64,000 nt of DNA from Enterobacter phage CC31, in sequence record NC_014662.1; one strand, 5' to 3'. The translations under genes and the position numbers were made by a program. Below, piece by piece: positions 2,966 to 6,475 of the stretch (position 1 is the stretch's first letter; each line of letters starts with the position of its first letter). The notes beneath the pieces were generated by a model. That model saw only the letters and a list, made by a program, of their open reading frames with translations, was not told the origin of the DNA and made no database searches.

Positions 2966-3302
2966 TTTTACCTCGGCATTCCGTAATGAATTCTTCTGAT
3001 TCTCTGATTATTCTATTATGAAGAACTTTAGCATTCTGTTCAGCTAAGCGTTTATTTTCTGGTCGCATCACCCACCAAATAGCAATTTCTTGTGATTTTC
3101 CGTGAGACCAAAGTAGAACTGGAATAGAAAGAAACATTGATACTACAACCCAAATTGGAGCATATACTCCGTCATTAAGTATTAAAGCAGGAACAAAAAT
3201 TAAAAGCACCGCCACTGAACTAAAAGCCAAAAATATTATCATATGTAAAAATTCTGCTTTTGCTGCAAGCTCTCTTAATTCACTTTTTGGTTGATACCCC
3301 AT
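2949..3302 (-). CDS. Small membrane protein, paralog 3
   Basis: 117 aa; two hydrophobic helices; C-terminal EEFITECRGKN. Confidence 0.55.
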   Translation of the reverse strand: MGYQPKSELRELAAKAEFLHMIIFLAFSSVAVLLIFVPALILNDGVYAPIWVVVSMFLSIPVLLWSHGKSQEIAIWWVMRPENKRLAEQNAKVLHNRIIRESEEFITECRGKNEIQS

Positions 3303-3304
3303 GA

Positions 3305-3679
3305 TTATTTCCTCGCTTTACGACAGTCGTTAATGAAGCATTCAAACCGTTCAGCTTTGCTGAGCTTTGATATTATTCTATTTCTTCGCATGCCAATTAA
3401 AATTTGTGCAATAAAATTAACAAATTCACCAATCAGCATAACAATGATACCAAACATTCCCCAACCAAAGCATGTGAATGCAGCCATTGCTCCAGCAGAG
3501 TCAGCTCTTTCTTCTTTTGGAAGATTTGTGATATCAGACCAACCCCAAAATACAATAATTCCGTATAGTGTCAATGCAACGCACCAGCAGAGCTTTTCAT
3601 TTCTGGTCAAAATATATCTGACTTTGGTTGAAAGAGAATCCGTTTTAGCAATTTTAGCTTTAAGTTCAGTTGAATTCAT
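3305..3679 (-). CDS. Small membrane protein, paralog 4
   Basis: 124 aa; CWCVALTLYGIIVFWGW and second helix; C-terminal FECFINDCRKARK. Confidence 0.55.
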   Translation of the reverse strand: MNSTELKAKIAKTDSLSTKVRYILTRNEKLCWCVALTLYGIIVFWGWSDITNLPKEERADSAGAMAAFTCFGWGMFGIIVMLIGEFVNFIAQILIGMRRNRIISKLSKAERFECFINDCRKARK

Positions 3680-3712
3680 TTTATTTTCCTCATAGGGCCC
3701 GAAGGCCCTTTA

Positions 3713-4630
3713 TCATTTGAACGGACGAATCATATCAAAGTTTTGTTTAAAGCGTTTGACATAATCTGTCTTTCCAAGTTTCTTATGCATTGCAACTATC
3801 TTATGGTAGTTTTCCCATGCATATTCACGAAACCAGCCAGATGTAATGCTAGTACAAACTTTTTCCAAAGCGTACATAAATGAACCCGTAGGGTCTGGGT
3901 TGAAATTATTTGGAATTTGATGGCGTTCTAAAGCAAGTACACAAGTTTCTTCATATACACCTGCAAGCTTAAGTTCTTCAGGAAGAGAATCGAACTTCTC
4001 TTTTGAAGTCATTACTTCAGAGCCATCTTTCATGTAGAAAGTATAAGCAGGACGACCAGCTAAAGCCACTGCTTCATGAATTGAATCGTGGTCATAGATG
4101 TAAAAATCATCTTTAAAGAAAGAATCTTTATCTACATCCAGATTAGGATGAGAATATGCTAATGTTTCTTTCTGGCGCAGTTCAGAAATCTTTTTCAGTT
4201 TACTGTCTAAAACAATTCCTTTATTACGCAAGAAACGAATATGATGCATAGTCTTTTGAAAGAAACGAGTGTTCTTCTTGAAACGATGAGACATCTTAAT
4301 TGCTAAGCACATCTCAGGAGTTGCCCAATACATCTGTGAAAGCGCATCATAGCACCCATTAAATACTGCGTAGTGAGCAAGCAGTTCAGATGAACTCTCG
4401 TCGTTATATTCAAAAATGTATGCTTCAAAATAGGTCTCACGACCATTATGCATGCATTTAAAGGCTTGTACATTAGGAGATTGAACTTCGACCTCTGTAC
4501 CATTCATACGGTTTTTGAAATGGAGCCATTCGCCCGGAGACGCGATGAAGTCCCAATCAGAATTCTTAACATCACTGTACTCAATGAGTCCATGGTGATG
4601 TAGAGCTCTAGAACCAATAACCAGCAACAT
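3713..4630 (-). CDS. Hypothetical protein, 305 aa
   Basis: Long ORF; N-terminal VIGSRALHHHG...SDWD loosely resembles a nucleotidyltransferase motif but spacing is non-canonical; C-terminal NFDMIRPFK tail. Confidence 0.5.
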   Translation of the reverse strand: MLLVIGSRALHHHGLIEYSDVKNSDWDFIASPGEWLHFKNRMNGTEVEVQSPNVQAFKCMHNGRETYFEAYIFEYNDESSSELLAHYAVFNGCYDALSQMYWATPEMCLAIKMSHRFKKNTRFFQKTMHHIRFLRNKGIVLDSKLKKISELRQKETLAYSHPNLDVDKDSFFKDDFYIYDHDSIHEAVALAGRPAYTFYMKDGSEVMTSKEKFDSLPEELKLAGVYEETCVLALERHQIPNNFNPDPTGSFMYALEKVCTSITSGWFREYAWENYHKIVAMHKKLGKTDYVKRFKQNFDMIRPFK

Positions 4631-4659
4631 AATATTTTCCTCTTTAGAATGTAGAACTA

Positions 4660-5001
4660 CTATAACACACTTGACTGATGTTGTAAACGGTTCTTTCTAC
4701 ACATTCTGATGAAGTTTTCAATAGGCTCTTCTGGTCTATTGGCTGGATAGCATTTCTTCCAGTTCCACCCTCCCAGCAAGTCAAAGATTTGGTCAGGAAG
4801 AGAATCCCATGGATGTTCTCTTTCGCGGAGTTGAAGCACAATATCACCGGCTGCTTCTCTAATTCCAGTATCAAGTTTTCCATTACAAATCACGACATCC
4901 ATGAGTACTGCAAGACAACAACTATCATGGCTTCCGTATTTGTTCGGATAGTAGAAATAATGGTCAATAATGTAGCAGCAATTACGGTCTAAACCTTTCA
5001 T
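4660..5001 (-). CDS. Hypothetical Cys-rich protein
   Basis: Start chosen at MKGLDRN (ATG 5001..4999 after AGGA); C-terminal ENFIRMCRKNR tail shared with downstream genes. Confidence 0.45.
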   Translation of the reverse strand: MKGLDRNCCYIIDHYFYYPNKYGSHDSCCLAVLMDVVICNGKLDTGIREAAGDIVLQLREREHPWDSLPDQIFDLLGGWNWKKCYPANRPEEPIENFIRMCRKNRLQHQSSVL

Positions 5002-5064
5002 AGTGTTCCTCCAGTGATTCTGGGGAAACTTTTCAGTTTCCCCATATATTACCATTAACAGCTG

Positions 5065-5137
5065 CTAGTGTACCTGGACTCGAACCAGGGAATCGTAGAA
5101 TCAAAATCTACTGCCTTACCAACTTGGCTATACCCCA
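5065..5137 (-). tRNA. tRNA-Gln (UUG), no encoded CCA, acceptor mismatch
   Basis: Manual fold: anticodon arm GTAGA-TTTTGAT-TCTAC, T-arm CCTGG-TTCGAGT-CCAGG; body close to remembered E. coli tRNA-Gln. Confidence 0.7.
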
Positions 5138-5143
5138 ACTGTT

Positions 5144-5220
5144 TGGAGGCGGGTGATGGACTCGAACCATCGCGTAACGGGATATGAACCCGTCATTCTA
5201 CCAACTGAAGTTAACCCGCA
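5144..5220 (-). tRNA. tRNA-Met/Ile2 (CAU)
   Basis: Anticodon arm ACGGG-TTCATAT-CCCGT, T-arm GATGG-TTCGAGT-CCATC, encoded CCA; position 1:72 unpaired. Confidence 0.65.
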
Positions 5221-5230
5221 CTTATCCGGA

Positions 5231-5318
5231 TTCCTGAAGTACAACGGCTGCTTTATGTAGAACTCACCTATTGTGAGGGAACAAAATCACTGGTCCTGGC
5301 ATTAATTATGGACCACCA
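5231..5318 (-). ncRNA. Candidate structured small RNA within tRNA island (not a tRNA)
   Basis: Outer 9-bp stem ttcctgaag/cttcaggaa enclosing two hairpins (GGTCC..GGACC and CTCAC..GTGAG); no T-loop motif. Confidence 0.35.
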
Positions 5319-5340
5319 TCTTCAGGAACTGCCTCGTATT

Positions 5341-5416
5341 TGGCGGACCTAACGGGATTCGAACCCGTGACTCTCACGTGACAGGCGAGTATTTTCACCG
5401 CTGAAACTATAGGTCC
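5341..5416 (-). tRNA. tRNA-Asp (GUC)
   Basis: Perfect cloverleaf: acceptor GGACCTA/TAGGTCC, anticodon arm CTCGC-CTGTCAC-GTGAG, T-arm ACGGG-TTCGAAT-CCCGT, CCA encoded. Confidence 0.8.
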
Positions 5417-5658
5417 AAATTATCTTTCGTGATTATGTGAATCCCTCAGGTTTTCCGGAAAACCGAATAGGCGACAAAAGCTCTCATATACCCGTGCACA
5501 GATATAATCTTTGTTAACTAGTGTCTGAATCAGTATAATCCGAAAGATAACTTTCGGCGCCGTATTTAATTTGAGATATGTAGTTATCGTTGAGGGAACT
5601 CATATTCAGGGATTAACATGCCGACGACTTTGTCAGAACGTCTTCCAACTTCTATATT

Positions 5659-5743
5659 TGGCGGGTCGTGCAGGTATCGAACCTGCCTAGTCATTTCTGA
5701 CACGGATTAACAGTCCGCCGCTTACCCTCTCAGCCAACGACCC
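5659..5743 (-). tRNA. Type-II (long variable arm) tRNA with Asn anticodon GUU
   Basis: 85 nt; acceptor GGGTCGT/ACGACCC, 3-bp D-stem, anticodon arm GCGGA-CTGTTAA-TCCGT, 15-nt variable hairpin GTCA-GAAA-TGAC, T-arm GCAGG-TTCGATA-CCTGC, G73, CCA. Confidence 0.6.
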
Positions 5744-5748
5744 AAATT

Positions 5749-5823
5749 TGGTTCTCCGTAAGAGAATTGAACTCTTCTTTCCGACGTGAAAGGCCGGCGT
5801 CCTAACCGATAGACGAACGGAGA
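5749..5823 (-). tRNA. tRNA-Glu (UUC)
   Basis: Acceptor TCTCCGT/ACGGAGA, anticodon arm CCGGC-CTTTCAC-GTCGG, T-arm AAGAG-TTCAATT-CTCTT, CCA encoded. Confidence 0.7.
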
Positions 5824-5824
5824 T

Positions 5825-5902
5825 TGGTAGGACGTGAGGGAGTTGAACCCATCGACATTCCGATTAAAAGTCGGATGCTCTAACCAACTGAGCTAACGTC
5901 CT
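5825..5902 (-). tRNA. tRNA-Lys (UUU), weak T-stem
   Basis: Acceptor AGGACGT/ACGTCCT, D-arm GCTC-AGTTGGTTA-GAGC, anticodon arm TCCGA-CTTTTAA-TCGGA; T-stem only 3 bp. Confidence 0.65.
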
Positions 5903-5940
5903 GTAGATATTTATAATAACAAAAATATCTTTAAGCAAAT

Positions 5941-6016
5941 TGGTGGGAATAACTGGACTCGAACCAGTGACCTAACGATTATCGGTCGTTTGCTCTACCA
6001 ACTGAGCTATATTCCC
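5941..6016 (-). tRNA. tRNA-Ile (GAU), C at position 33
   Basis: Acceptor GGGAATA/TATTCCC, D-arm GCTC-AGTTGGTA-GAGC, anticodon arm AACGA-CCGATAA-TCGTT, T-arm CACTG-GTTCGAG-TCCAG, CCA. Confidence 0.7.
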
Positions 6017-6022
6017 TGAATT

Positions 6023-6110
6023 TGGTGGGGAGTGATGGAGTCGAACCACCCGAGTCGCAATGACAACAGATTTACAGTCTGCACCGCTACCTCTACGGAA
6101 TTAACTCCCC
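6023..6110 (-). tRNA. tRNA-Tyr (GUA), type II
   Basis: 88 nt; acceptor GGGGAGT/ACTCCCC; anticodon arm GCAGA-CTGTAAA-TCTGT as in remembered E. coli tRNA-Tyr; long variable arm; CCA. Confidence 0.8.
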
Positions 6111-6115
6111 GAAAT

Positions 6116-6475
6116 TTATTTAAGAACTGTTGAGTTCATCGATTTAACCAAGAAAACTTGGTGTGGTGAACGAAGTGAACCTTCAATAGTGCGATGTTCT
6201 GGAAAATTGGTTGAAGTCTGAAAACCAGCTACACGGTAACCTTGCTCAGTCCATCCTAAAAGGATACCAACCATACAGCCAGAATATTTTCCGCTTTTAT
6301 CCAAAGCTACAATATCACCAGGAGCAATTTCATTACCCATTGAATCAGGCTTAATCCATTGTGGAGTAACCAGTTCTATAGGTATATTTATACCGCTTGA
6401 AAAGCTGTAATATTCGTCTGAACGTAAGCCCTGAATGCTTTTAAAGACTTTATGCCAAGTTTTACTGATGCTCAT
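6116..6475 (-). CDS. Hypothetical protein
   Basis: 119 aa ORF directly upstream of tRNA island. Confidence 0.5.
   Translation of the reverse strand: MSISKTWHKVFKSIQGLRSDEYYSFSSGINIPIELVTPQWIKPDSMGNEIAPGDIVALDKSGKYSGCMVGILLGWTEQGYRVAGFQTSTNFPEHRTIEGSLRSPHQVFLVKSMNSTVLK

Follow-up and report, generated by a model that had tools for sequence, protein, structure and literature searches.

A folded spacer between tRNA-Asp and tRNA-Met

The sequence analysed here, referred to as the window, is a stretch of 64,000 nucleotides from Enterobacter phage CC31 (NC_014662.1), a T4-like member of the Straboviridae belonging to the Karamvirus group; its positions 3139-5886 show 100% identity to the IMG/VR genome UViG_650627040_000001 (165,540 bp). 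It contains an island of eight tRNA genes, all encoded on the minus strand, as determined with ARAGORN and the Rfam tRNA model. Two of these genes, tRNA-Asp(GUC) (5341..5416, minus strand; ARAGORN and Rfam) and the initiator-like tRNA-Met(CAU) (5144..5220, minus strand; ARAGORN and Rfam, 44 bits), are separated by a spacer of 120 nt (5221-5340, minus strand) that encodes a small folded RNA. On the tRNA strand, the CCA of tRNA-Asp runs straight into this spacer, which reads AAUACGAGGCAGUUCCUGAAGAUGGUGGUCCAUAAUUAAUGCCAGGACCAGUGAUUUUGUUCCCUCACAAUAGGUGAGUUCUACAUAAAGCAGCCGUUGUACUUCAGGAAUCCGGAUAAG and is followed at once by position +1 of tRNA-Met. The element occupies the whole spacer (5221..5340), from the CCA of tRNA-Asp to the +1 of tRNA-Met, and matches the final covariance model over its entire length (1-126 of 126). 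Since the tRNAs lie on the minus strand, the RNA of the element is read from the minus strand as well.

A structured non-tRNA element inside the tRNA island had already been proposed in a first-pass annotation of this DNA, and covariation across homologues strongly supports it. The remark that the element bears no T-loop or anticodon-arm signature was likewise borne out, neither ARAGORN nor the Rfam tRNA model calling anything there, even at E<=10. A tRNA or pseudo-tRNA was rejected, as the 7 tRNAs reported by ARAGORN all fall outside 5221-5340, where the program detected no tmRNA either, and cmscan gave no tRNA match at E<=10. In the Rfam scan that the annotation had suggested, no family matched the element, even at E<=10: at gathering thresholds, the 4227 models of Rfam 15 (including ribozymes, T-box, Y RNA/YrlA, SRP and 6S) returned only tRNAs across the window, and in a permissive scan of 5000-6200 (E<=10) nothing overlapped the element.

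Elsewhere in the island, a tRNA with a long variable arm (6026-6110, minus strand; Tyr in relatives) was missed by ARAGORN and detected by the Rfam tRNA model with 39 bits. Its counterpart is annotated in one record of a relative as tRNA-Pseudo-GTA.

Homologues and predicted fold of the element

A set of 17 loci was fetched on the basis of a BLAST search with the spacer, and the spacers located 5' of tRNA-Met were extracted. Inspection by eye revealed strictly conserved ends and hairpin stems that differ and yet stay complementary. A first covariance model, R1, was built from a structure drawn on six trivially alignable sequences, and the search of the fetched loci and of about 0.9 Mb of IMG/VR loci with this model yielded 26 members. 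A second model, R2, derived from those 26, added members from Jiaodavirus, Kanagawavirus and one unclassified Klebsiella phage, giving 30 distinct sequences. In the window, the element scored 82 bits with R1 (E 9e-20, cmsearch) and 109 bits with R2 (E 1e-24), the latter being the sole R2 match within the 64 kb.

The predicted fold is Y-shaped: a long closing stem (P0/P1/P2), which carries a GUA bulge, leads to a junction from which two arms emerge. All the features described below are given on the minus strand. The 5' leader AAUACGAGGCA (5330..5340) contains a GGCA that is invariant in 30/30 sequences together with G12, the first base of P1 (alignment A5). P0 is a 2-bp clamp formed by GG 5332-5333 and CC 5228-5229 (G8 and G9 with C112 and C113); these pairs are GC in 30/30 members and never vary, so that covariation is uninformative on P0. 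The 10-bp closing helix P1 pairs GUUCCUGAAG (5320..5329) with CUUCAGGAAU (5230..5239), the latter corresponding to ttcctgaag on the plus strand. Compensatory changes were found in 6 of its 10 pairs, and GUUCUUGAAG/CUUCAAGAAU is rewritten in other lineages as GUCCAGAGAG/CUCUCUGGAC or GUCUAAAGAG/CUCUUUAGAC. P2 pairs AUGGU (5315..5319) with GCCGU (5244..5248); it has 5 bp in the window, where it also forms in the minimum free energy (MFE) fold, and 6 bp in most relatives (AUGAGU/ACUUGU), with both-side changes in 2 pairs and 99.4% of cells paired. On the 3' strand, between P2 and P1, lies the bulge UGUA (5240..5243), whose GUA is invariant in 30/30.

The first arm is the P3 hairpin (5292..5314), in which GGUCC 5310-5314 pairs with GGACC 5292-5296 and closes a 13-nt loop, AUAAUUAAUGCCA (5297-5309), ending in an AAUGCC that is invariant in 30/30. 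Four of the five P3 pairs show compensatory changes and 100% of the cells are paired, the stem being replaced elsewhere by GUCCU/AGGAC, GGUUCC/GGAACC, GGUUCU/AGAACC or AUUCC/GGAAU. The second arm (5256..5283) starts with the 3-bp helix P2c (UGU 5281-5283 with ACA 5256-5258), continues through an invariant, pyrimidine-rich internal loop (UCC 5278-5280 opposite UUCU 5259-5262) and ends in the P4 hairpin, where CUCAC 5273-5277 pairs with GUGAG 5263-5267 around the 5-nt loop AAUAG. A compensatory case exists in all 3 pairs of P2c and in 3 of the 5 pairs of P4. The strand joining the two arms (5284..5291) includes the 5' half of P2b, whose partner lies within 5249-5255. P2b is the least secure helix, with 2 bp in the window and 3-5 bp in relatives (AGCU/AGCU, AGGU/ACCU), 82.5% of cells paired and compensatory changes in 2 pairs. 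Finally, the 3' tail CCGGAUAAG (5221..5229), with a CC invariant in 30/30, ends at the RNase P site of tRNA-Met; after CCGGA, the tail diverges in Kanagawaviruses, in which the tRNA is missing.

The three helices named in the first-pass annotation are all present in the sequence, namely the outer helix ttcctgaag 5231-5239/cttcaggaa 5320-5328 and the hairpins GGTCC 5292-5296/GGACC 5310-5314 and CTCAC 5263-5267/GTGAG 5273-5277, and to this inventory P2, P2c and the weak P2b have to be added. The outer helix itself is 10 bp long (5230-5239/5320-5329) rather than 9, and is extended by the 2-bp GG/CC clamp at 5228-5229/5332-5333. The end that had been given for the element, 5318, has to be corrected, as it loses the 3' half of the outer helix, which ends at 5328/5329.

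The features by which the new family is defined (P0-P1-P2 with the GUA bulge, P3 with AAUGCC, and P2c/P4 with UCC/UUCU) are all found in the window, as are all the invariant positions. The unit measures about 100-120 nt in CC31, the window version being the smallest, and can reach about 175 nt in relatives; a J2/3 strand of 4 nt and an enlarged P4 tip are found in other lineages. This tip is freely variable, with expansions of 30-50 nt in PG7, Merlin, PKO111, Moon and CF1. A conserved expansion of about 35 nt, GGAUAAGCUCUAUAUUCGGAAGAUUAUAUCUUUAG, stands in place of the P4 tetraloop in L017 (PG7), L021 (Merlin), L142 (PKO111), L039, L028, L016, L059 and L025, and a different one of about 50 nt is found in CF1 (L107); the window has the minimal hairpin.

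The unpaired GGCA, AAUGCC, UCC/UUCU and GUA, as well as the CC of the tail, are fixed in 30/30 sequences while helices such as P1 are rewritten. Invariant unpaired bases amid changing helices point to tertiary contacts or to a bound partner. A pseudoknot between the GGCA of the leader and the UGCC of the P3 loop is a possible alternative to P0. Both partners of this pseudoknot are invariant, and covariation therefore cannot decide between the two pairings; P0 appears likelier on geometric grounds, because P3 stands about 16 bp from the base of P1.

Evidence for selection on an RNA

Canonical pairs were found in 96.8% of 1040 pair cells, compared with 34-48% when the 3' partners were slid by 1-3 columns (n=30), and both-side changes affected 20 of the 35 pairs (141 cells), with compensatory changes in all six helices across the 30 homologues; these counts rest on model-fitted alignments, which lean towards the structure of the model. 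None of 500 column shuffles equalled the real alignment in pairing or in covariation score. P0, P1 and P3 were also recovered when RNAalifold was run on a plain MAFFT alignment, and P1, P3 and P4 turned up in independent single-sequence folds. G.U cells were far more numerous than A.C cells (103 vs 6), and the antisense strand would pair 86.9% of the cells. This excess of G.U over A.C fixes the strand of the RNA, and an RNA encoded on the antisense strand was ruled out on the same basis. Compensatory changes in every helix, together with the strand-specific G.U bias, argue for selection on an RNA. The covariation check, which had been set beforehand as the refuting test, thus came out in favour of the element.

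Folding energy contributed little. The MFE fold of 5221-5340 (minus strand) contains the outer helix and both hairpins plus extra pairs; its z score was -1.85, with 6 of 200 shuffles folding as well, a weak signal. For the coordinates of the first-pass annotation, ending at 5318, z was +0.6, and among eleven homologues values ranged from -2.4 to +0.4. Since these energies are little better than those of shuffled sequences, energy alone does not establish the element and was not used as evidence.

The comparative data bear directly on the reading of the locus as a relic or as something other than an RNA, that is, a degenerate copy of a tRNA or of rnaC, a short ORF, or a DNA site (homing-endonuclease target or promoter) conserved by recent descent. 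Such a reading could draw on the "hypothetical protein" annotated over the element in some records, on the AT-rich P3 loop, which resembles a -10 or late-promoter box, and on the ORF insertion that separates the element from the upstream tRNA in the phages Ursula (L002 1040-1519, HNH endonuclease) and KMB20 (L014 137-601, hypothetical protein), which adjoins the element and has its stop codon in the P1 5' strand, at the 5' border. We regard it as very improbable, as the compensatory changes in every helix and the G.U bias demand selection on RNA and largely refute it. Moreover, the ORFs of at least 20 aa that cross the element in the window also extend into the tRNA genes, mini-ORFs from in-element AUGs (examined by eye) are not conserved, the indels are not multiples of three, tRNA models give no match, and a sigma-70 scan finds nothing in the element.

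A coding ORF was also rejected in its most suggestive form: the SD-like GAGG and the AUG in P1/P2 give M-S-stop or other non-conserved mini-ORFs, the AUG being AUA or AAG in three members and the GAGG missing in three. A promoter or terminator inside the element was discarded, none having been detected by consensus scan. According to these sequence comparisons, the element is a conserved structured RNA whose function-bearing strand is the minus strand, and in several T4-like genera selection is keeping both its pairings and its unpaired nucleotides.

Distribution among T4-like phages

A BLAST search with the spacer of the window retrieved 29 phage records with 73-99% identity. When the variant of the Citrobacter phage CF1 was used as query, 203 phage records were obtained, 161 of them with a query coverage of 80% or more. 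Klebsiella phages account for 137 records, Enterobacter phages for 33 and Citrobacter phages for 8, with further hosts in Serratia, Raoultella, Edwardsiella, Kosakonia, Pectobacterium, Cronobacter and Erwinia; no Escherichia phage was among the records listed for this variant. The matching records (about 200) are all Straboviridae; none of them annotates the element as an RNA, and it is either left unannotated or overlapped by a "hypothetical protein" ORF.

T4 does not carry the element, as neither R1 (E<=1) nor R2 (E<=10) found a match in T4 66000-76000. Two pattern scans of IMG/VR recovered T4-like genomes or contigs only (102-177 kb), apart from two chance matches in coding DNA, and R2, run over about 0.9 Mb of viral loci that have the anticodon arm of tRNA-Met in common, detected no more distant members. 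A search of the literature on Karamvirus and Jiaodavirus transcriptomes and on non-coding RNAs of T4-like tRNA clusters returned nothing on the element.

The window-type variant is 96-99% identical in CW742 (Karamvirus), LC53 (Winklervirus) and Ursula (Straboviridae, genus unassigned), whose closer relatives carry a type of 128 nt. Because a near-identical variant thus spans groups whose closer relatives have the 128-nt type, the pattern suggests that the segment has been exchanged laterally between phage groups.

Genomic context and autonomy of the element

In 26 of the 30 members, the element abuts an initiator-like tRNA-Met with zero spacing, and in 28 of the 30 a tRNA with a CAU anticodon follows directly or within 32 nt. 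The tRNA-Met(CAU) of the window combines a U1xC72 mismatch with the pairs G2-C71/C3-G70/G4-C69, and the base of its anticodon stem consists of three consecutive G-C pairs. It is called initiator-like on the basis of the identity elements of the E. coli initiator, and given these hallmarks of bacterial initiators, the phage appears to encode its own initiator tRNA.

This close association is what would be expected if the element acted in cis, as a leader or processing platform: the folded spacer would organise maturation or stability of the precursor and the excised piece would be discarded. It could do so by joining the 3' end of the upstream tRNA to the 5' end of the CAU tRNA, by presenting RNase P or RNase E sites, or by blocking exonucleases. 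The zero-nt junction with tRNA-Met in 26/30 and the CAU tRNA that comes next in 28/30 fit such a role, as do the tail CCGGAUAR, which is conserved only where a tRNA follows, the unusual 1x72 mismatch of the neighbouring tRNA, and the P0/P1 helices, which clamp both ends of the spacer together. Nevertheless, several observations speak against it. More than 120 IMG/VR contigs have an identical tRNA-Met anticodon arm, and of about 115 loci with this arm sequence only about a dozen have the element. In the IMG/VR locus L067, the initiator-like tRNA-Met is found elsewhere, without the element, and the CAU tRNA that comes 32 nt after the element is another one. The layout is the same, with a 1-nt gap, in Klebsiella phage HMGUkp2, where the initiator-like tRNA probably also stands apart from the element, the upstream tRNA-Met copy being cut at the edge of the locus. 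Furthermore, the element is not followed by a tRNA in two Kanagawaviruses, PEi20 and Kosakonia phage 305, and it keeps every invariant position there, those of the loops included. The gene that comes next in these two phages is homologous (54% identity, E 1e-35) to the ORF located after tRNA-Met in Winklerviruses, indicating that the tRNA is absent and the element has been retained. A simple clamp, finally, needs no invariant loops distant from the ends. A cis-acting role is therefore considered unlikely, though it retains an appreciable share of the probability, and a pure processing platform for the neighbouring tRNA, as mentioned in the first-pass annotation, is disfavoured because the element stays intact where tRNA-Met has moved or been lost.

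The upstream neighbour is also variable and may be tRNA-Asp, tRNA-Asn, an rnaC/rnaD-like spacer or, as in Ursula and KMB20, an inserted ORF that stops precisely where the element begins. Since its neighbours vary and tRNA-Met can be moved or lost, the element behaves as an independent module and not as the mere leader of one tRNA. A scan for consensus promoters and terminators gave no match on the tRNA strand between the genes of the cluster, which makes co-transcription with the tRNAs the natural inference.

In Winkler- and Kanagawaviruses, the tRNA cluster contains or ends with a gene for a small signal-peptide protein (L143 666-1082; L011 859-1236), adjoining the element or tRNA-Met. The copies are 54% identical, and one record assigns a YadA-anchor-like domain.

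Candidate function: an autonomous small RNA

The reading preferred here, to which about an even chance is assigned, is that the element is an autonomous small RNA, cut from the tRNA precursor and acting in trans. It would be transcribed within the polycistronic tRNA precursor and then released by the enzymes that process tRNAs. The cut that frees the CCA of the upstream tRNA would give its 5' end, and an AAU start is common to all the modules, T4 rnaC and rnaD included. RNase P, cleaving at the +1 of tRNA-Met, would produce the 3' end, which would then be trimmed as far as the closed P0/P1 stem, and this stem would protect the excised RNA. During infection, the RNA would then act in trans, its invariant loops binding a protein or RNA partner, and its resemblance to RNA C and RNA D of T4 would be functional, without homology. 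Counted against the small-RNA reading were the unexceptional folding energy, the weak P2b of the window variant, the lean of the model-fitted alignments, the lack of extended complementarity between the loops and the neighbouring tRNA, and the adjacency of a CAU tRNA, which equally fits a role in cis.

The position of the element could also suit a self-cleaving ribozyme, by which a tRNA end would be released independently of RNase P and RNase E. HDV-like "theta" ribozymes, which are found adjacent to phage tRNAs at the 3' trailer, offer a comparable case. Indeed, the invariant nucleotides cluster in junctions and internal loops, and in most genomes the element starts 3 nt past the CCA of a tRNA and ends exactly at the +1 of another. 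Against this, no ribozyme family of Rfam matches at E<=10, the upstream neighbour is often no tRNA, and a stem that closes the 5' and 3' ends over a 3-way junction is unlike the HDV-like, hammerhead, twister, pistol and hatchet folds, which leaves catalysis with only a very slight probability. The likeness to theta ribozymes lies in their being small structured RNAs that abut phage tRNA genes, with a possible tie to tRNA end formation, whereas the element has another fold, no HDV-like Rfam match and a position on the 5' side of the tRNA.

A more specialised form of trans-acting RNA, one dedicated to CAU-anticodon tRNAs or to translation initiation, is considered quite improbable. Its starting point is that the element nearly always accompanies a CAU tRNA, of three different types, and displays an invariant AUG (within AAUGCC) in an open loop of 13-14 nt. 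In addition, the invariant CC after the closing helix, upon trimming and addition of an A, would resemble an NCCA-like acceptor end. The company of CAU tRNAs, the AUG of the loop and the NCCA-like end together raise the idea of a tRNA-minihelix or codon mimic. The loops show no extended complementarity to the neighbouring tRNA, the P3 loop and the CAU anticodon loop being complementary only over the 3-nt AUG:CAU, which is not supportive. If the proposal were true, such a mimic could be a ligand or chaperone of the phage initiator tRNA, or a decoy for a host enzyme or defence nuclease with specificity for the acceptor ends or anticodons of tRNAs; as a phage RNA countermeasure or translation modulator, it would belong to a new class.

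Comparison with known phage RNAs and with the tRNA-Asn/tRNA-Asp spacer

To our knowledge, the stable RNAs of the T4 tRNA region have gone fifty years without a known function. By analogy with them, the small RNA proposed here most likely represents a new RNA family of the "T4 stable RNA" kind. Large ornate phage RNAs of 500-800 nt, GOLLD and ROOL, whose function is unknown, also occur near tRNA genes. The element shares with them the condition of a conserved structured phage RNA near tRNA genes with no known function, but it falls far under 500-800 nt, and no Rfam match was obtained, where these families would be reported if Rfam has them. The likeness to tRNAs (RF00005) is limited to a common operon and strand, tRNA processing sites at the flanks and a long terminal helix with an invariant CC after it; in contrast, the element has no cloverleaf, T loop or anticodon arm.

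RNA C (species 1, rnaC) and RNA D (species 2, rnaD) of T4 are still uncharacterised and their roles are unknown (PMC3014915; PMC12685909). The element resembles them in being a non-tRNA module of 100-140 nt located inside the tRNA cluster on the tRNA strand, which starts with AAU directly past the preceding CCA and has its ends closed by a terminal helix. However, it has no detectable homology with them in sequence or structure, R1 and R2 remaining blank in the T4 region. T4 rnaC has a tRNA-like T arm (CCGGGUUCGAAUCCCGG), whereas the element is without an arm of the GGUUCGAAUCC type, and T4 rnaD is followed directly by CCA (...GCGCACC|A), whereas the element runs through ...CCGGAUAAG to the +1 of tRNA-Met. 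The analogy drawn in the first-pass annotation with the stable RNAs of the T4 tRNA region consequently holds for context (strand, location within the cluster, AAU start after CCA) and not for homology to rnaC or rnaD. Homology to either RNA was rejected as such, the covariance-model searches being negative and the strings shared by eye short (CGAGG, CCGG); a MAFFT alignment of the T4 rnaD-rnaC region with other spacers was noisy.

The element would thus be a third, unrelated RNA of the kind found in the T4 tRNA region, with an unusually well supported structure and clear candidate functional nucleotides. It is carried by around 200 sequenced phages, whose hosts are Klebsiella, Enterobacter, Citrobacter, Serratia, Edwardsiella and relatives and many of which are candidates for therapy, and it offers a compact target for showing what phage tRNA clusters hold besides tRNAs. 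An Rfam entry seems deserved and would correct the annotation.

The 242-nt spacer between tRNA-Asn and tRNA-Asp (5417-5658, minus strand) also looks structured. RNAalifold on 9 homologous spacers predicted two closed domains, at about 5556-5658 and 5419-5553, with both-side changes in 20 of the 77 predicted pairs. The former contains a stem, GUCGUCGG/ACGGCGC, that is also present in T4 rnaD, the latter has a 19-bp closing stem with compensatory changes, and the sizes of both resemble those of T4 rnaD plus rnaC. With a separate rnaD-like module in this spacer, the element between tRNA-Asp and tRNA-Met would be an additional RNA. In phage CW742, a hypothetical protein of 159 nt is annotated in the tRNA-Asn/tRNA-Asp spacer.
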